Below, piece after piece: positions 51,094 through 64,000 of a stretch of DNA of 64,000 bases. Under the pieces are notes generated by a model. That model did not search any database. It was not told the DNA's origin and saw only the letters and a program-made list of their open reading frames with translations. A program made the translations under genes and the position numbers. The stretch comes from an uncultured Acidobacteriota bacterium. GTDB taxonomy: Bacteria; Acidobacteriota; Blastocatellia; RBC074. How positions within the stretch are numbered: position 1 is the first letter of the stretch; every line of letters starts with the position of its first letter. The DNA lies in contig CAWCKY010000003.1 in the NCBI GenBank assembly GCA_963796275.1, forward strand, positions 416,001 through 480,000. The letters are read 5' to 3'.

Positions 51094-53559
51094 TCATCGT
51101 TTGCTCATCACATAAACTCCGCCTGAAGATGAGGCCGCATAGAGTCTGTTCGAGTCGAAGGGATATGCGGATAACGACCAGAGCCTGGGGCTGGGCAATT
51201 GGCTGATATCGAGCTTATACCAGGTCATCCCCCGATCCCGCGAGTGATAAAAACTGTTACGCATGTCATCAGAGGCGTAGAGTTCGTCCGGATTTGCCGT
51301 GTTTATGGCTATTGCTCCGACATCTGAAAGCAGGGCCATTCCTCCGCCGCGGTTCTCCCAGCTGCGCCCGCCATCGGTCGAACGGAAGAAACCCGTCGAG
51401 GTGCCGAGATAGATCGTCTCTGCCGTTCGCGGGTCGAAGATTACGGTATGGATGTGCCTCACCTCATTCTCGATCGGCAGATGGTTGAATGTCTCGCCGT
51501 TGTCAACCGATACATATAACCCAGCCACGGTGCCGACATAGATCACTCCGGGCGCGTGCGGAGATGTAGCGACGGCATTGACGCGCGTTTGTCTGGGAGA
51601 AGGTGCATTTTCGGCTACCGCGCGCAGACTTATACGCTTCCATCCTTTCTTCACATCATCGCTGCGATAGAGCCCATCCCAGGTCGATGCTATTAACCAA
51701 TTCGATTGAGCATTAGATCCGAGACTATCGACCGCGCCGCTTTCACTGATACTGGCGATTTCGACTTCCCGCCGCGGGATGAACGGCACGAGCGATAAGA
51801 CCTGGGTTTGCAGATCGACGGGATCGTTCGGATTCGGTTTTGGCTGCGGAGGAGGAGATGGCGGCCTCTTCGATTTTGTGATTGTGCCCGCGCTTTTTTT
51901 CGGAGAAGATTTGGATTTTCGCGGGCCATTCTTTGCGGCCTTTTGCGCGATCTGTCCGATTTGCTTCACTCTCCGGGGCCGAATTTCCTGCTCAGTCGGG
52001 CGGTTTTGCCCAGGCTCGCCGGTGACAGGGCCATGGTCTCCTCCCTCGCTTTTCTCCTTAATCTCTTCTTTGAGAATACTTCTTTTTTGACTGAAGTCCA
52101 ACTGCGACCCTGATCGTCAGAACGGAAGAGGCCGTGGTTGGTACCGGCAAAGATCGTCTCGGGATTTACCGGCGATTGATAGAGCGAATAGACATCGCGC
52201 ACGCCCATCCCGGTCATCGATTGCTGCCACGACAAGCCGCCGTCTTCACTGATAAAAAGGCCGCTGTTCGATCCATCGAAGATGATTCCGGCGTAAACTC
52301 GTCCGGGCACTTTCCGATCGGCGAGCACGGTGCGCACCTGACGATTGATGAATCCGGCATTGCTCCGGTCGTAGGTTTCTCCGCCATCATTGCTGACCAG
52401 TACGCCGTGATCTTCAGTTCCGAGAAAGACGCGATCAGGTCTATCCGGATGAACTGCGATGGCATTGATCACGAGACGGATCGAAGTCACCCGCACCCAA
52501 CTATCAGGCCCGCCGTGATTGGACGAGAGCCACAATCCTTCCGTTGTGCCGGCGAAGATCACATCAGGCCTGGTCGGATGCTGATAAATTACGTGCGTGC
52601 GGCGGCTGGTATAAGGAATGCCCTGAATCTTAGTCCATCGGAGGCTGTCATCGATAGCGCGGTAGATGCCGCTGCATGCGCTCATCAATACCGTCTCAGG
52701 GTTCGCTTCGTCGATATGGATCGCAAAGATATCGGAGTCGTCGATCATCCCCGTCTCTTTCGAGCCGGCCCGGTTCCATATGAGACCGCCGTCGATCGTT
52801 CTCCAGGGCAGATGATTGGTGCCTACGTAGATCGTATTGACATCGCGCGGATCTATCGCGACCGAATGAAAGCCTCTCAGCTCAGGATCGTTCTCGGGTG
52901 TTATGCGCTTCCAGGTTTGCCCCCGATCCATTGTGCGATAGACGCCATCGAGGGCCGCTGCTACGAGCACATTTGCGTCTTTGGTGGATTGCACGATCCC
53001 GCGCACCGCGCGTCCTCGCATACCCTCGAAATCACGCCAGGTCTCGCCATCGTCTTCGCTGATAAAAATATTGCCGCCCCTGGTTATTTCACCCTGCGGC
53101 GTCACGGCTTTGACCCCGGCAAAAATGATCTGGGGGCGTTCCCTGTCGAAGAGGATGATTGTCACCATAAACCCAGATGCTTTGATGCCCGGGCGTATGC
53201 GTTTCCAGATTTCGCCGCCATCAGCCGAGCGAAAAATTTGCCCATCGCTCGTGCCCAGCAAAATTCGGTCAGCATTGCGCGGATCGATCGCCAGGGCGGT
53301 TACATCGCCGCCGAATGGTCCGGTTATCTGCCATACACGTTCATTCAGGATCCGCCCCGGCGCGGAAATTGACGGTGTCGACCGCGTTCGGATTGGCGTT
53401 ATTACTTGGGGAACGGGAGGGGTCGCCTATCGATACGGCCTCCGACGAAACTTGCCCGTACGTGACAAGAGTGGCGGAAGCAATAATATAGAGGAGGAGG
53501 AACGAGAATAGGTTTTTCAATCTATCAAGCAAGGCACCAGGTGTCATCAATTTCTCCAT
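51094..53559 (-). CDS. Secreted BNR/Asp-box (YCF48/sortilin-like) beta-propeller protein, split into three ORFs by two apparent frameshifts (~53368, ~52080)
   Basis: The signal-peptide ORF 53341-53559 continues off-frame as RILNERVWQITGPFGGDVTALAIDPRNADRILLGTSDG. Repeated SxDGGxxW boxes occur in both 51966-53261 and 51094-52101. Confidence 0.8.
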
Positions 53560-55004: not shown

Positions 55005-55877
55005 CTATGCGTTTTTGGTAGCGACGATCGTACGTGGAATTCCGCGCAGGTCTTTCAGTATTCGTAGATCAGACCAGACCGCCGGATCTATCATCGCAGA
55101 AATTGCATCGGATTGTGTATACCCCATCTCGCAAATCAGATAACCGCCAGGTTTCAGCCGCGCCGGCGCATCGCTGAGAAGACGCCGATAAAATGTGAGC
55201 CCGTCATCGAAATCGGTCAGAGCAACCTTCGGCTCCCAATCGCGCACTTCGCGCTGCAGCATTGGCAGCTCATGCCGTGAAACATAGGGCGGATTTGATA
55301 TGATGATGTCGGCGAAAGGAATATCGGCGAAAGCATCGAACAGGTTTGCCACGATGAAGTCGATCCGCTCGGACATCACATTCCGTGCTGCATTGCGTTT
55401 TGCTACTGCAATCGCCGCGGTCGAAATATCGGTCGCGATCGCTCTCAACCCATCTATCTCTCTGGCCAGTGTTACTGCGATGCAGCCGGAGCCGGTGCCG
55501 GCATCGACTATCAATGGCCGGTTGAAACTAGCCTGCTGCACTATCCGAATCGTCTCTTCAACGATGAGCTCAGTCTCTGGCCGTGGGATCAAAACATCGG
55601 GGGTCACTTCGAACTCCAGTCCGAAAAATTCCTGGTGCCCGGTGATGTATTGCAGCGGTTCGCCCGCTGCCCGCCGCTCGATCAATGACTGATACTTGAT
55701 CCGTTCGCCATCCGAGAGAAGCCGATTGAAGTTGATGATGAGGTAGGTACGGTCTCGACCCAGCGCTTCCGCCAGTAGCGTCTGGGCATCCAGCAGGTCG
55801 TTGGGGACCGATGCTTCACGCAAGTATTCGCTGGCGCGTTTGAGTACCTCCGCGATGGTTGCAGATGAAGCGATCAC
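55005..55877 (-). CDS. prmC: Release factor glutamine methyltransferase
   Basis: [31 protein letters not shown]; downstream of prfA. Confidence 0.95.
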
Positions 55878-56032
55878 CCGAAATTCACCAAAAAATCACA
55901 AAAGGCACGAAATATAATATAGAAAGAGAAGGCGCGAGGATCGTGAGTCTATGCCGGCTATTCTTTGGGCAATTAATTTCCCCGGGCGATTCGGTAGATA
56001 TACTCTGGCGATTTAGGCAATTTCGCAACGTT

Positions 56033-57124
56033 TTAGCCGACGCTCGCAACCTGCTTTTCCGTCTCTTCCTTGAGTTTCTCTGCCTGAAAATGTGTGACGA
56101 CCGCGTCGATCAACTCATCTAGATAGCCTTCCATGATCATATCAAGTTGATGAATGGTGAGGCCGATGCGGTGATCGGTGACGCGGTTCTCTTTGAAATT
56201 GTAGGTTCGGATTTTTTCCGAGCGGTCACCCGAGCCAACCTGTGAACGCCGCTCGGCCGAGATGGCCTGCTGCTGCTTCTGTTGCTCCACTTCGAGAAGG
56301 CGCGAGCGCAATATTCTCATTGCCTTTTCGCGGTTCTTGATCTGCGATTTTTCATCCTGCATGGACACGACGAGTCCCGTCGGGGTGTGCGTGAGCCGGA
56401 CTGCGGAGTAGGTTGTGTTGACCGACTGACCGCCCGGCCCGGATGAACAGAAAGTGTCGATGCGGAGGTCTTTCGGATCGATCTTGATGTCTACCTCTTC
56501 GGCTTCGGGGAGGATTGCGACAGTTACAGCCGATGTGTGGATGCGCCCGCTCGCTTCCGTCTGTGGGACGCGCTGCACTCGGTGGACGCCCGATTCGTGT
56601 TTGAGTTTGGAGTAGACCCGGTCGCCTTCGATAATGGCTTCGCCCTTCTGAATGCCGCCCAACCCGGTCTCCGATGAATCGGTGACCTGCAACTTCCAAC
56701 CCTGTCTTTCGGCATAACGTGCGTACATCCGCAGAATTTCCGCGGCGAAGAGACAGGCTTCTTCACCGCCCGTTCCCGCGCGAACCTCGAGGATAACGTT
56801 CTTTTCGTCGTTCGGGTCTTTGGGAAGAAGCAGAATTTTCAGGTCGTCCTCGACCTGAGTGCGTTTCTCTTCGAGCTCGGGCAGTTCGAGGACCGCCAAT
56901 TGGCGCATCTCTTCGTCATCGACATCGCGCAGTATCTCGCGGGCGCCGGTGATGTCGGTATCGAGTTTCCTCAACTCACGATACTTCTCGACCACAGGTT
57001 CGAGCTCGCGATGGTGCCGCGCCGCTTTGGAGTAACGCGCCTGATCGCCGATCACGCGCGGGTCGATCATTTGCTGAGTCAACTCCTCGTAGGTCTTTTC
57101 AATTGCTTCGAGTTTTTCACGCAT
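56033..57124 (-). CDS. prfA: Peptide chain release factor 1
   Basis: [17 protein letters not shown] (PxT), [17 protein letters not shown]. Confidence 0.97.
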
Positions 57125-57180
57125 ATTTAGTCGGCAGTTGTCGGTTACGTGGATTGAGCGCTCTATGTCCCGACAACCGG

Positions 57181-58443
57181 CTACCGGTTGCCGACTACCG
57201 GTTGCGGTTCCAGCTTCAGTGATTCCTGGAGCGCGTATATCGCTACTTCCAACTGGTCGGCGGATGGCTCTTTCGTCGTCAGGTTCTGCAACCAGATGCC
57301 TGGTCGCGTAATGATGGAAAAAATCTTGCTCGTCTCTTTTCTGCCAGCCGCGCGGATGATCTCATAGGAGATGCCGGCGATCAGTGGGATCAGTGCGATG
57401 CGTATCAGCATATTGAAAGTGAGATAATCGAACTTAATCACGGAAAAGAGAATTATCGAGACCAGCATCACGACCATCAGGAAACTGGTCCCGCAGCGCG
57501 GATGCTGGCGCGGATAGCGCTGCGCATTCTCCACCGTCAGATCTTCACCAGCCTCCCAGGCATAGACCGTCTTATGTTCGGCGCCGTGATACTCGAATAT
57601 CCTTTTGATGTCATCGAGCCGCGAAAAACCGTAAATCATCAAAATGAAAAAGAGCATCCTGATCATTCCATCGACCAGATTGAATGAAATGGAGGGTCGC
57701 ACGGGCTTGAAATACGGCGCAACCCACATCCAGATCGCCTGATACCATGACGCATCTGCGGTAACTGTATGCTCCGGCGAAACCTGCGGCGCATAACCCC
57801 AGCCGAAATGGATGAATAATATGTTGGTCAGGAGAAACGGCACCACGATGAAGAGGATAACGTTGAAGAGTAGCATGAAGGCTATCGAGCCGGCGGCGAA
57901 TCCGGTTTCAGCCATTTTCCCGCTTCCCCCTTTCGCTTCAGTCGCTCCGGTCGCCCGGTCAGTACCGGTTTTTGCCCCATTTGCTCCGTTTGCCCCATTT
58001 GCTTCTGGTGTTTCGGCGTTCAAATAGGCAACGATCCTGCTGGAAATTTGATCGGGTGCTTCGATAGCGTGCGCGGCGGTGATGTATGCGCCGGTTGCGG
58101 CCGCCGCTTGCGCTGCCGGTTTAGGTTCGTTCTCCTTTTTGTCTTTCTTACTCAGCTCTTCGACAGTACTCTCTTCTGTAGCTATATCCTCAAGAGCTAC
58201 AGTTGCTGAGAAGTTGATCGCCTTGATGCCGAGCAGCATTGAGTGAATCAGCACCGCACCACCCCGGAGGATCGGTACTCGGAGAATTGGAAACTTTTCA
58301 CTTAGTTTCGGCAATCGCTCCGCTCTTGAGACGATGGTGCCGTCCTGCCGGCGCACAGCCACTGCGTAGGAATTGGGCGCGCGCATCATGACGCCCTCCA
58401 TCACCGCCTGCCCACCGACAATGATCTCTTTCTCTCGGCTCAT
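57181..58443 (-). CDS. DUF1385 (YqhQ-like) membrane protein with low-complexity insertion
   Basis: [33 protein letters not shown]; rpmE-DUF1385-prfA-prmC gene order. Confidence 0.9.
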
Positions 58444-58452
58444 ATAAATCTC

Positions 58453-58671
58453 TCAAGCCTTGGCCGGTTCTTTATATCTGCCATATTTCTTTTGGAATCG
58501 CTCGACGCGGCCGGCTGTGTCTACCAGCTTCTGTTTGCCGGTGAAGAACGGATGGCAATTCGAGCAAATCTCGACATGCAGCTCCTTCTTGGTTGATCGC
58601 GTCGTCCACGACGCCCCACACGCACAGACCACGCGGCAGTCTTGATATTCCGGATGGATACCTGGTTTCAC
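58453..58671 (-). CDS. rpmE: 50S ribosomal protein L31 (Zn-binding type)
   Basis: [37 protein letters not shown]. Confidence 0.96.
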
Positions 58672-58871: not shown

Positions 58872-59885
58872 TTAACCCGAGGTCGGGAAGACCTTAAAGT
58901 CGATACGCTTGTGGCATCTGTCGCAGGATCCCCCGCCGTTGTCTCCCGGCTCACCGCTGAATACCGTGCGACCGAAGTGCACGCGTCCGTCGTGGCAACT
59001 GAAACAACCACGCCCGCTGCGTTCTCCCGGATTGAGGTGCTGTTTGACCCTCACCGAAGTCGGAGTCGGCTGGTTAAATCCGCCTGAAATGGTATGACAC
59101 TCTTCACATCTGCCGGCTACGTACTCGACGTGCGCCTTGTGCGTAAACAGTGCGCCGAATGCGCGGCTGATGTACTTGAGGGAATATTCCTGAACGGTCT
59201 TCACGCTCTCCGTGTGGCAGCTCTTGCAATCGGATTTTTGACTGGCCTTCTGGTCGGGGCTCCCGGGAGAGTGGCAGATGAAGCATTCAGGATGCGATGG
59301 GATAGTCAGGAACGAAGGCTTCGCATCGTCTTTGTGGCAGAATCTGCAATCGGTCTTCGTGTTTGTATTGGGTAGATTGTAGGTGATGTGCAGCTCGTGT
59401 TGCTTGGCATCGAAGAAGGCATTGAAATCATACCGCCTCGGGAAGTCGCGCTGCGCGGGGCGCACCGGTAATCCGTTTAATAGTCCGCCCTCCGTCTGGT
59501 GACAGATCGTGCACGTCTGCTGGGGCGTCGCGGTGAATTGCGTAACGTGGCATTCGATGCAAGCTTTGTGACCGGGGAATTTCAGAAGGTATTTATTGTT
59601 GCGGTCGGTCGTCCCGACGATTACCTTGTCCAGTTCCGCCTTGGGAAGATTCTGATGGCACGAGTCGCATTTCAATATGCGAGCGGAGCTCGTTCCGGGC
59701 ACATTGATCGTCCCAAGGTGCGATTCGTGCGTGAAGCGTTCGTAATTTATCGGCTCTTTACGCGGTTGGGGATTCGGCTTCTGCTGGCCTTGCACTGAAA
59801 AAGTGCCGTACATAAAAGCCGAAAAAACCAGGCAACAGAGCACGAGAGCGATTTTGATTTTCTCGATCCACATCATATCGATCAC
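58872..59885 (-). CDS. Nonaheme c-type cytochrome (three cytochrome c7-like triheme modules)
   Basis: Signal peptide; CDSCH, CIECH, CTICH / CRFCH, CFICH, CKSCH / CEECH, CFSCH, CDRCH, each triplet preceded by an HxxH motif. Confidence 0.9.
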   Translation of the reverse strand: MIDMMWIEKIKIALVLCCLVFSAFMYGTFSVQGQQKPNPQPRKEPINYERFTHESHLGTINVPGTSSARILKCDSCHQNLPKAELDKVIVGTTDRNNKYLLKFPGHKACIECHVTQFTATPQQTCTICHQTEGGLLNGLPVRPAQRDFPRRYDFNAFFDAKQHELHITYNLPNTNTKTDCRFCHKDDAKPSFLTIPSHPECFICHSPGSPDQKASQKSDCKSCHTESVKTVQEYSLKYISRAFGALFTHKAHVEYVAGRCEECHTISGGFNQPTPTSVRVKQHLNPGERSGRGCFSCHDGRVHFGRTVFSGEPGDNGGGSCDRCHKRIDFKVFPTSG

Positions 59886-59999
59886 TATTTTCTGAAAAGC
59901 AAAAAAAGCAAAAACTACAAAAAAGGCAAAATTTCTTTGTCCTTTTTGCGAAATTTTGCCTTTTTTGTTTACTTCTATATTCGCGCGAAAGAGCTCACA

Positions 60000-62428
60000 T
60001 CAGCGGCGGGCCGCGATACGAACTTGATTTCGCTCATTCGATCCACGAATCATATCGAATAATTTGACCATTAGATCGAACCTGCGCGACGACGCAGGCC
60101 TTTGACGGTTATCTAATATCGCCATCTTTTCAACATGGCAACCGGCACATCTTGACGTGGGGGCCAGGCGGTCCGCATCCGGATTGGCATCGTAATAACG
60201 TTTATGACACTCGATGCAACCGGCAAGTGCGGCGGGGCCGTTGCCCGTGTTGTTCGGATTGCCATGATACCCCATCTCCACATCGATCTCTTCGCCCTCT
60301 GCATTCTTGGGATTTTCCGGATTGCCTTTCTCCATGATGGCAAAAAACGCAGTTGGGGACGTTCCCTGACGCCATATCTGCCTTCGTATCGTTATTCGAG
60401 TGATGGCAATCCTCGCAACTCTTGGAGTATTTAGGCTGGGTATGGTTCTGGTGATCGAAATTTTCGACCACCCCCCATTTTTCATCCAGTCCCCAATGAG
60501 GATTATCTTTCGAATCGCCCAAACGCGGCAACTTCGGCTCCATCTGCGCCATACCCTTGCTCGGGAATACCTTATAAACGATCCCGCGCACTGTCACCGT
60601 TCCACCTCCGCCAGTGGGAGCGGGAGCAGGCGCCGCTGACGGTAGGGGCGGGAGCAGGCGTCGGGGCCGGCTCCGGTTTTGGCGGCTCCGGCGGCGGGTC
60701 AGCCTTCGCTACCGTCTCTGTCGGGGCAGGTGCAGGTGCCGGCGCGGGAGTGACTGCCGGCTCCGGTTGCTTGGTCTCCGGAGCGGGTGTCGGCTCCGGT
60801 TGCTTGGTCTCCGGAGCGGGTGTCGGCTCCGGCTGCTTGGTCTCCGGAGCGGGTGTCGGTTCCGGGTCGTCGGAGCCGGTGTAGGCGCAGGTGTGGTATC
60901 CGGTTGCTTGGTCGTCGGCACGGGTGTAGGCGCGGGAGCCGGCTCCGGCTGCTTGGCTTCCGGTTCCGGCTCGGGATTCTTGGGCACCGGCACAACCGCG
61001 ACTACCGTCGGTTCGGGCGTTGGAACGGGCGCCGGGTCCTCCTTTTTAGGTTCCGGTTCTGGTTTCGTTTCGACTGCCGGAGTGGGCGCGGGCGCCGGAT
61101 CCGGCTTCTTAGGCGCCGGCGTCATATTCATCGCAAGCGTCGGCCCCGGCGTCGGTTTGGGCCCCGGTTTCTTATAGAAATGGTTGGCCGGCGGCAGCTC
61201 GACCACCCCTCTTGATTCGAATAACCTGATGGTCTGCAGCGAGTGGCAATAATTGCACTTCGCCGACTCGATCGTCACCGCGCCTCCGATCTTCTTCTCC
61301 ATCTCCTTCTGGTGACAAATGGCGCAGTTCTGAGCGGACGGCTGATTCTCCTTCGATTTGCGATCTTCAAGATAGAAATCCGAGAGCGTGACCGCCGTTT
61401 TACCCGTCACGTGACAGGCTATGCAGTAATTGTCCAGATTCTTGAAGGTCGGTTCCTCGTAGATGAGGTTTTTATCGTGCGTTTTATGACTATACGGCAG
61501 CGGCGCTTTCTCTCCCGGTTTAACCGGATCCAACTCATTGTTGGAGATCAGACGCGAAAACCAGAGAGGGGCAAATTCCGAGCCCTTCACCGGGCGCCCC
61601 AGTTTATTCAGGGGCATCCCCGTCGGCCGGTGGCAACCGGAACAGTTCGTCGCAAATGTATTCTTCAGGATCTGGTTTGTCTTTCTTCGGTGGTGGAACG
61701 ATCTTGGGATCGAAGTGACATATCCAGCATTCGGGATGAGAGGGAGCGCTCATCTTGACGCCGGGTTTAAATTCGATATTACCCACCGTTATCGGCGCCG
61801 GAGTCATTACGTGACAGGACATACACTCGAACTTACTTTTATCCAGACCCCTGTTCGCCTTCGCATCTTTCTTGGCGTCGTAAAACTTCATCTTGTCTTT
61901 CAAGGGCGTCGACGTGATGAATGAATCGTAATAACCCTCGTGCTCGCTGTGCGAGTAATAATCGTAGAACTGCGATATCCCACCGCCATCAGGATTGGTG
62001 AACCGGCGGAGGTTGGTCTTCATGTCCTGCTGATTGAAGGTGAGTGTGTCGTGGCAGATCGTGCACATCTTACGCTCAATCGCCGGACCCGTGAAGGCGT
62101 GACACTCAACGCATGCGGAATGGACTATTTCGGACTCCGATCCGTTCTTGTGGCTGGGATAGCCGATCGTTCCGATGTCGTGCCGGTCTTTCCCGAGTTT
62201 GTCCTTGACCGCGTCGCCGTGGCAATAAGCGCAGTCGAGATTATAGTTTTGATTTCTGATGATAAGGCTTTTGACCACACCCTCGTGCGATGAATGCTTG
62301 AACTTCGAATAGTCTACCTTGATAGCGCCGCGCTTCTTCTGCGCTACTACCTGGTTGACGAGCTCAGTACCACGCCAGAGAGCGAAAGCTAGAATAAGAA
62401 AAAAGAGTGTGATTATTCTTTTTGTCAT
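60000..62428 (-). CDS. Large 13-heme c-type cytochrome with Pro/Thr/Glu-rich linker, broken into several ORFs by four apparent frameshifts
   Basis: Reconstruction gives CAYCH, CVECH, CTICH, CMSCH, CWICH | CSGCH (off-track frame), CIACH, CAICH, CNYCH | PEPTPAPETKQ linker | CEDCHH, CVFCH | CIECH, CAGCH. Frame changes near 61667, 60865, 60645 and 60335. Confidence 0.82.
60758..60865 (-). repeat. 33 bp coding tandem repeat x3.3 (PEPTPAPETKQ)
   Basis: cggctccggttgcttggtctccggagcgggtgt starts at 60758, 60791 and 60824, with a partial copy at 60857. Confidence 0.9.
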
Positions 62429-62564
62429 CGGCTGAATGGGGTGATAAACGGTTGAATTTAAGAATTTGAATTCAACACAAGACCGCAAAGACGCAAAGAG
62501 AGGTTTCTGAAATATCCCTGTACTCTTTGCGTCTTCACGTCTTGCTTTAGGTTCTTAATCGTTC

Positions 62565-62616
62565 ACTTTATCTTACTTTATCTTACTTTATCTAATCTTT
62601 ATCTTACCTTTATCTT
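62565..62616. repeat. ~10 bp tandem repeat x5 (actttatctt)
   Basis: actttatctt actttatctt actttatcta atctttatctt acctttatctt. Confidence 0.85.
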
Positions 62617-62634
62617 TTTGTGGCTGACTCGAAG

Positions 62635-63999
62635 TCAGGGCAGATTCGGTTGTGGCGGGAATCTGAGATAGGGCAATCGTACTGTCGCCCCACCCGGAAA
62701 AGTAATAACCACATTGTCCGATGTTATATTCGATGGCGCTTCGAATCCGCTGCTACCGCCTCTGCTGGTAAGGTCGTCCTGATCAATACCATCGCCGCTG
62801 ATACCGATCGCGCCTACCATCTGGCCACCTTTGAAGAGAACGGAGCTGCCCGCGAAGATCTGGATTCCATTAGCCGTTGTCGGGACGGCAGTACAGGGAA
62901 CCGAAGGATTGCCACCCAGCGCGTCTATCAAGTCCTGCGTCACCAGAGAAAGTTGCAAGCCATTGTTGAACGGGCTGAAGACATTGATCGGCCTCGAGAA
63001 CGGCCCCGGAGGAGCAGCGTCGATTCCGTCCGGGACGAATGGACGGGCCAGGAACCCCATTCCGCGTGAACTGAACATAATCGAACCATTGAGCGGGACA
63101 CCAAGCGCTAGTGCCGCATTGACGAATGGTGCGATGGGAATACCGGGGGTATCAGCCCCGAGCAATTGTTGTACCGCATTTGGGCTGCTGAACAAGACTG
63201 CTGTCCGCGCTTTCTGAGTGCTCACGTCGTCGCCGAACTCCGGCGCGTCAGAGGTCGCGGCTTTCCCGAGTATAGCGCCGTTATTATCGACAACCGTAAT
63301 ATTGATCTCAACGGCATCGACACCTACGCGGATGGCAGCGCGCATTCGACTGGCGGCCTGCGCGGCCTGCGCGAGCATGCGACTGACATCGCCCGCCGTC
63401 AATTGATTCGGCCCCGGCACGGTGCTGTTTATGGGCGGGAATCTGGGATCGAATTTCGCCGGCACGCCGCCGAGAATGATCGGTATATACCTTGAGGGCG
63501 GCGACGCGATCGGACCTATCAGGAACGTTCCATCCGCAGCGGTAACGGGCGGCGCCGGACTACCGCGCTGCGGAATGTTGGTGTATGGCAACAAGATTCC
63601 GTTAACTCTTACGTTATCGATGCGGAGAAATTGTGGCGTATCGAAACCTAATCCGGATGCGATCGCAACATCCTCCTCGAAAGGTTGATCGTTATCAGTA
63701 ACAACGGTATCGATGGTATAAAGCCCATTCGCTTCGAATGCGACACCACCCAGCGCCATACCATTCCTGAAAAGACCGACGCTTCCTGGATCACCCGAGA
63801 GACCTAACGGTAGAGTCCCACCGGCAGGCCTGGTATCCGAACACGGTAATTGTGAAAACTGGACGCCGAAGAGCGGCCCGCCTTCAAAATTAGGGATTCC
63901 GGGAGGAAAGTGCTCCTGGATGATCATACTGGCGGTTCTGGTGTTGATCGCGCTACCCGATGTGCTGAAGAAAGCGGCAGTGCCTGCTTTCGAGATCGC
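62635..63999 (-). CDS. GlcG/HbpS-like heme-binding protein with tandem domains, 5'-truncated by the window edge
   Basis: The frame stays open to the edge (AISKAGTAAFFSTSGSAINTRTASMIIQEHF). The second domain has INITVVDNNG, VSTQKARTA and VGAIGISGDGIDQDD. Confidence 0.78.
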   Translation of the reverse strand, partial: AISKAGTAAFFSTSGSAINTRTASMIIQEHFPPGIPNFEGGPLFGVQFSQLPCSDTRPAGGTLPLGLSGDPGSVGLFRNGMALGGVAFEANGLYTIDTVVTDNDQPFEEDVAIASGLGFDTPQFLRIDNVRVNGILLPYTNIPQRGSPAPPVTAADGTFLIGPIASPPSRYIPIILGGVPAKFDPRFPPINSTVPGPNQLTAGDVSRMLAQAAQAASRMRAAIRVGVDAVEINITVVDNNGAILGKAATSDAPEFGDDVSTQKARTAVLFSSPNAVQQLLGADTPGIPIAPFVNAALALGVPLNGSIMFSSRGMGFLARPFVPDGIDAAPPGPFSRPINVFSPFNNGLQLSLVTQDLIDALGGNPSVPCTAVPTTANGIQIFAGSSVLFKGGQMVGAIGISGDGIDQDDLTSRGGSSGFEAPSNITSDNVVITFPGGATVRLPYLRFPPQPNLP

Positions 64000-64000
64000 G

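Follow-up and report, generated by a model that had tools for sequence, protein, structure and literature searches.

A tandem GlcG protein linked to multiheme cytochromes in a ptd-like barrel-cytochrome cluster of a Blastocatellia bacterium

To what kind of redox system do two multiheme cytochrome genes belong that stand beside a gene for a protein with two GlcG domains, in an Acidobacteriota bacterium of the class Blastocatellia? The window analysed here is the whole stretch of 64,000 nucleotides at G000:C3:416001-480000, G000 being an assembly of 9.46 Mb in 7 contigs. The ORF list of the window places three co-oriented genes on the minus strand, as a preliminary description of the sequence had claimed: a nonaheme cytochrome c (58872..59885), a 13-heme cytochrome gene (60000..62428) and the 3′ part of a tandem GlcG/DUF336 gene (62635..64000). 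Its count of 22 CxxCH motifs was reproduced on the minus strand between positions 58925 and 62233, with 9 motifs in the intact nonaheme gene and 13 in the second, frameshifted gene, and hydrophobic N-termini, read by eye from the sequence, are present on both cytochromes. We consider it fairly probable that the cytochromes act as a wire through the periplasm, and that the tandem GlcG protein is a small-molecule-binding subunit, of an NAD(P)H-fed trans-envelope chain that leads to a probable outer-membrane redox enzyme.

The three genes had been taken for the 3′ part of one operon, which they are not. The GlcG gene continues for about 1040 bases beyond the window (801 aa in full, L001:4636-7041) and is the first gene of the unit in its direction of transcription. 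The partners expected outside the window do exist, but they are divergent or on another contig rather than upstream in one operon. A predicted outer-membrane barrel of 684 aa (L001:7457-9511) and a decaheme/LVIVD-propeller protein of 1367 aa (L001:9727-13830) are encoded on the plus strand, divergent from the GlcG gene, and an inner module of cNMP-FeS-membrane, FHA-heptaheme and FAD/FeS genes lies on contig C4 (G000:C4:1163538-1170468). The barrel and the FAD/FeS oxidoreductase correspond to the porin and the flavo/Fe-S oxidoreductase that had been suggested as further partners. With what we take to be the FNR consensus, no FNR-like site was found in the divergent intergenic region (L001:7042-7456), while 21 loose matches are scattered across L001. 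A short degenerate repeat (gataaagtaa-like, minus strand) lies between the GlcG and 13-heme genes at window positions 62565-62630 and is skipped in one X3 contig, and an AT-rich inverted repeat (59905-59965) precedes the nonaheme gene. The housekeeping genes downstream, at 55005-58600, are outside the redox system; one contains DUF1385 by Pfam, others are presumably prmC-like and prfA-like, and a CSNCH motif at 58566 resembles, as we take it, ribosomal protein L31.

The intact nonaheme cytochrome (337 aa) consists of three c7-type triheme units with three His per unit available as distal ligands, and the His spacing read from the sequence in the repeated units is that of c7. It matches Pfam Cytochrome_C7 (PF14522) with E = 8e-17 and 61.2 bits (cut-off 24.8), and stays below the cut-off of TIGR04257 (28.5 bits vs 40). 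Its sole sequence match in the PDB is 3ouq (E = 1e-5), which we take to be a fragment of GSU1996, a c7 polymer of Geobacter. The tandem triheme c7 units are common to the Geobacter polymers and the present protein; the differences are the nine hemes, a partner cytochrome that has a stalk and a c3 tetraheme, and the gene context.

The 13-heme gene encodes three c7-like units, a Pro/Thr-rich stalk and a c3-type tetraheme, and is frameshifted at least four times. The preliminary description treated its product as one 13-heme protein; in fact there is no single ORF, and the motifs are spread over four listed ORFs and three frames, with 5 in the first, 4+2 in the second and 2 in the third, and tblastn with orthologues from the same genus steps through frames -1, -2, -2 and -3. 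Breaks were located at 61667, ~60870, ~60610-60635 and 60337, the two in the stalk being placed by eye and from X2 alone. In runs X2 and X3, contigs from related organisms are both one base shorter at each of the positions 61667 and 60337. The frame that resumes at 60555 contains a stop at 60709, so that the Pro-rich stalk must hold two more breaks that compensate each other. Run X1, 99% alike, has no coverage of the breaks. Intact single-ORF orthologues with 13 CxxCH occur in the same genus (L023, 722 aa; L050, 800 aa), and relatives that are 83-87% identical have 765-800 aa. In 15 of 15 loci of the same family (L023-L037) this cytochrome follows GlcG, in the 13-heme form in 7 and in the 9-heme form in 8, and the nonaheme is also present in 14 of the 15, the fifteenth stopping at a contig end. 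As a baseline, 1 of 90 loci (119,224 bases) is frameshifted, and that one lies 30 kb from the 13-heme gene; the count requires 80% coverage, hence is an underestimate, and error and decay look alike in it. All remaining genes of the cluster are open, and other split genes are visible in the assembly. We are inclined to think that the 13-heme gene is mis-assembled here, and a recent break in the strain is a substantial possibility. Other apparently frameshifted genes are G000:C4:1156287-1158444, which we take to be PNPase-like, window positions 51094-53261, and G000:C3:507299-509081.

In the GlcG protein a hydrophobic segment at the N-terminus is combined with a TIGR03437 domain and two GlcG domains of the HbpS-like type. 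The motifs by which it had been recognised (AISKAGTA, QKARTA, GAIGISGDG and GGPLFGVQFSQLPCSD) are all present, and its GlcG/HbpS-like identity is confirmed by a Pfam HbpS-like match at E = 4e-18. It belongs to DUF336/GlcG (PF03928) by profile, with 66.1 bits against a cut-off of 25, and by fold: the AlphaFold2 model of the two-domain part (pLDDT 95.7, pTM 0.95) has EfgA as its best Foldseek match (E = 9e-6, target TM 0.76-0.81), followed by PduOC, OrfY, NahX and HbpS. The similarity to PduOC and HbpS, together with the RefSeq annotation of such proteins as "heme-binding protein", would fit a role in heme or iron handling, in which GlcG binds or degrades heme and iron is released at the barrel with reducing power from the cytochromes. 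The residues of the protein argue against this. PduOC binds heme through His18, which is essential for binding (PMC4923194), and in a weak alignment that site is occupied here by Thr285. The GlcG part contains a single His, a position at which 48 of 89 homologues also have His and 32 have Asn, and no His is invariant; EfgA co-purified without a cofactor (PMC8153426). The proposed binding of heme by the GlcG protein thus finds no support, the RefSeq label is probably misleading, and we regard heme or iron handling as very improbable.

The pocket residues of domain 2 lead back to the reading of GlcG as a small-molecule-binding subunit. EfgA binds formaldehyde at K57, S114 and D121 (PMC8153426). 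Assuming a 20-residue numbering offset of 6bws in the EfgA alignment, K610, S748 and D755 of domain 2 align with these residues, and all 65 sequences of a set of 65 keep the three without change. In domain 1 a Lys and a Glu are kept in 88 of 89 homologues, with the Lys below 90% in the 65-sequence set that includes divergent members. Conservation of the K/S/D triad extends through most of DUF336, and the triad therefore points to a small-ligand pocket and names no ligand; the molecule bound there may be small and polar, perhaps an aldehyde. EfgA, which shares the fold and the domain-2 pocket, is a cytoplasmic single-domain tetramer, whereas here two domains are fused in a protein of 801 aa. 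From the DUF336/GlcG family at large (EfgA, PduOC, OrfY, NahX, HbpS), which has the same fold and the K/S/D pocket, the present protein differs in its large conserved insertions, its export-type N-terminus, its TIGR03437 domain, the lack of a PduOC-type His and the linkage to cytochromes. Long tandem-GlcG homologues of 885-1337 aa with LEPR-like N-terminal motifs were also seen (P0137, P0141, P0143, P0145, P0146, P0150, P0153 and P0196); among 18 long homologues scanned only P0153 passes the LEPR-XLL profile NF012209. These motifs suggest surface targeting in other lineages.

The two divergently encoded partners constitute, with GlcG, the outer module. The decaheme protein contains 9 CxxCH motifs, one CX4CH and LVIVD repeats. 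A model of residues 67-1260 (pLDDT 79.9, pTM 0.85) gave, as a whole 1194-residue Foldseek query, listed matches of the propeller type with query TM of at most 0.21 and no multiheme cytochrome among them. By sequence it has no solved relative except over short diheme stretches, to which the PDB matches of the NrfA family are also limited. Outside the heme motifs 13 His are conserved (12 in 26/26 sequences, one in 24/26) compared with 10 distal positions, and we read this excess as a sign of a further site, for a metal or for catalysis; the decaheme may be catalytic. After clustering at 90% the decaheme has at least 7435 relatives (of 8000 scored), in clusters headed by Acidobacteriota, Verrucomicrobiota, Planctomycetota and Pseudomonadota, and most of the closest homologues (65-80% identical) bear the name Blastocatellia or Acidobacteria in their titles. 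The barrel sequence has no meaningful PDB match. With regard to a likeness to the 18-strand AlgE barrel, the Alginate_exp profile matches 4 of 65 barrel members (best E = 5e-5), the window organism's own barrel not being one of them. Four CxxCH motifs occur within the barrel ORF itself (732-791 aa) in L040, L047, L137, L150, L151, L166 and L215, a barrel-tetraheme fusion. A second barrel paralogue, 52% identical, is found at G000:C1:127695-129737 (L054), with no multiheme gene in the surrounding 20 kb.

The literature searched, in which subscription journals were thinly covered, contains no description of the GlcG-barrel-decaheme outer module (Tables S7 and S8 of the ptd study might list this variant), of GlcG in gene clusters with multiheme cytochromes, or of multihemes and porins together in extracellular electron transfer (EET) in Blastocatellia. 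Where LVIVD and multihemes come up together in it, nothing in the passages presents the LVIVD protein as a cytochrome.

The genes on contig C4 encode an FAD/4Fe-4S oxidoreductase, a cNMP-binding/FeS/membrane protein and an FHA-domain, membrane-anchored heptaheme. The membrane domain carries a His pair typical of b-heme, in agreement with the preliminary suggestion that a cytochrome b might be found. A gene for a ClpX-like AAA ATPase lies between the FHA-heptaheme and FAD/FeS genes (G000:C4:1165229-1166389; L232:5229-6389). Inner and outer modules, unlinked in the window's genome, form one cluster in L053, L123, L127, L129, L138-L143 and the Sphingobium locus L130. Two cNMP domains and one FHA domain are built into the inner-module proteins, and further FHA genes frequently flank the cluster. 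It is conceivable that such a system works as a redox sensor, with the outer module sampling an oxidant or reductant outside the cell while the wire reports to the cNMP and FHA proteins with little net flux, and both EfgA and HbpS are sensors (PMC8153426). About 40 hemes and an FAD reductase are heavy equipment for sensing, however, and no kinase, cyclase or DNA-binding gene is among the conserved partners identified in the partly annotated flanks. We consider a sensor improbable.

The composition of the inner module resembles that of the ptdABCDEFG cluster of Elbon, Stewart and Glass (bioRxiv 10.1101/2023.11.21.568154). As described there, ptd comprises an FAD/NAD(P) oxidoreductase, a cNMP and 4Fe-4S protein, a ferric-reductase-like membrane protein, a membrane-side multiheme, a barrel and further multihemes; its function is given as unknown, and PtdA is said to resemble cytochrome c552 5ze8. 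The PtdC-, PtdE-, PtdF- and PtdG-like domain content is present at C4:1163538-1170468, as matched to this description rather than to Ptd sequences. The preliminary view of the system as uncharacterised stands, but its inner half corresponds to a described cluster without a function. In the same description the ptd outer module is a pentaheme with the PtdB porin, whereas here it is tandem GlcG, another barrel and the decaheme-propeller; c7 nonahemes stand in place of the PtdD-like tetraheme, the PtdE- and PtdF-like parts are fused, and the PtdG-like protein has 7 hemes. Three Acidobacteriota genomes (G045, G159 and G197) possess the inner module with no GlcG or decaheme match, and in that slot have a pentaheme and another barrel. 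Their ptd-type pentahemes (L234-L236) match cytochrome c552 5ze8 at E = 1e-12. Between these pentahemes and the decaheme, hhalign with templates of only 3 sequences gave 31% over 37 columns, that is, no detectable homology; for the two kinds of barrel the probability was 0.2% with 3-sequence templates, and there was no BLAST match at E 1e-4. With the Sphingobium tetraheme as query, tblastn found no match above 55 bits to a PtdD c554-like tetraheme in G000. The system resembles a ptd-type barrel-cytochrome chain in its make-up, but the tests for PtdA, PtdB and PtdD came out negative. That the ptd chassis occurs with a second outer module, unrelated to the first, shows the system to be modular. 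The ptd-type clusters seen in Acidobacteriota are L234 (G197), L235 (G045) and L236 (G159), with partial ones in L237 and L238, and in them an octaheme replaces the tetraheme PtdD. Two genomes, G148 and G152, seem to hold both ptd-type and GlcG-type systems.

The distribution of the genes was followed in a single, evenly drawn sample of 301 Acidobacteriota genomes. The decaheme was found in 31 of them, GlcG in 30 and both in 29; the GlcG profile was built in part from sampled genomes, and related genomes among the 301 are not independent. The two decaheme genomes with no GlcG match are G145 and G196. The cNMP-FeS gene is present in 32 of the 301, 28 of which also have the decaheme, and the remaining 3 decaheme genomes carry a cNMP-FeS-like ORF within the locus. 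Of 80 metagenome GlcG loci, 28 are at least 14 kb long; all 28 contain an ORF with at least 3 CxxCH, and 21 the decaheme. The tie between GlcG homologues and multiheme genes, set beforehand as the test on which the proposal would stand or fall, held, and linkage and co-inheritance bear out the description of a dedicated, conserved and uncharacterised envelope redox system. The c7 genes are not its defining partner: the nonaheme occurs in 18 of the 301 genomes, 17 of them in the window's class, and is a nearly class-restricted part. Among 212 redundant loci, 86 have only the nonaheme, 31 only the c554-like tetraheme, none both and 95 neither, as if the two occupied one slot. The core system recurs in Sphingomonadales, where the Sphingobium and Sphingopyxis records have tetraheme, GlcG, barrel and decaheme in one run, in Sphingobium also with the inner module. 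The GlcG profile had no match in 151 genomes from the phylum to which G328 belongs, in a search without a positive control.

Two genomes of one genus, G304 and G320, contain the nonaheme pair in other surroundings. It lies there between ccs genes and a gene for a NapC/NirT-domain cytochrome and faces a DmsE/MtrA-type decaheme and a large putative barrel, and GlcG and the decaheme-propeller were not found; the nonaheme of G304 is 27% identical (E = 3e-29). Because of this arrangement and the ptd-type slot swaps, the c7 pair appears to behave as a reusable periplasmic carrier and GlcG to travel with the barrel and the decaheme. Together these genes make up a candidate Mtr-like conduit in a genus of the window's class (L251:2071-12029 and L253:544-2967 on G304:C15; L254:8415-19534 on G320:C17), which in G304 also includes a Crp regulator.

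MtrCAB, PioAB and MtoAB are porin-cytochrome conduits, and the present cluster resembles them in having a barrel gene beside multiheme genes and periplasmic carriers. A respiratory conduit of the Mtr/Pcc type would take electrons derived from quinol and hand them on, via a cytochrome inside the porin, to Fe(III), Mn(IV) or humics, and the c7 polymer architecture as well as the company of the nonaheme pair in G304 and G320 agrees with it. In this cluster, however, no protein matches the MtrA/DmsE or MtrB families above cut-off. The decaheme is a 1367-aa globular fusion without a DmsE match, in a test for which G304 serves as a positive control (TIGR03508, DmsE/MtrA, 229.8 bits with a cut-off of 192.2). 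The barrel has no Mtr/Pio family match, a comparison weakened by the G304 barrel, which also lacks an MtrB-named Pfam match. No NapC/NirT-like protein is among the conserved partners identified, and on the input side stands a flavoprotein of the NAD(P)H type, accompanied by regulatory domains. We therefore regard an Mtr/Pcc-type conduit as unlikely. The preliminary exclusion of Mtr, Nrf, Hao and Hmc agrees with NCBIfam matches that are all far below cut-off (HmcA 31 of 400 bits, QrcA 27 of 180, ExtM 65 of 800, with NrfA likewise below), and the system is not Mtr, Hmc, Nrf or Ext. The Verrucomicrobia porin-multiheme clusters (PMC5615132) share a predicted barrel with multihemes, and the Tenderiales uet cluster (10.1101/2022.05.06.490989) a predicted barrel and triheme c7 cytochromes. 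Compared by description only, both are reported with octaheme or undecaheme partners, and the available text mentions neither cNMP nor FHA for the former and neither GlcG nor HbpS for the latter.

These results lead us to return to the NAD(P)H-fed trans-envelope chain. Electrons would flow outward from cytoplasmic NAD(P)H to the FAD/4Fe-4S oxidoreductase, then to the cNMP-binding/FeS/membrane protein with its putative b-heme and on to the membrane-anchored FHA-heptaheme. From there the 9- and 13-heme c7/c3 cytochromes, with the stalk providing reach, would make the presumed contacts across the periplasm and deliver electrons to the decaheme-propeller beside the barrel, the putative enzyme. The cNMP and FHA domains may gate the electron flux. 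More tentatively, it is possible that the system is a plug-and-socket platform, in which one cNMP/FHA-gated, NAD(P)H-fed Ptd C-G chassis accepts interchangeable carriers and outer modules, and that GlcG, barrel and decaheme-propeller form a multiheme enzyme of the outer membrane that belongs to a class of its own, new so far, with one more His-ligated site and a small carbonyl-type substrate in the tandem GlcG pocket. If this is true, such a platform would exist in soil and freshwater bacteria that are not known for extracellular redox chemistry. The system also occurs in the cultured Sphingobium herbicidovorans MH and Sphingopyxis indica MC4, and its presence there makes a ptd system so far without a function testable.
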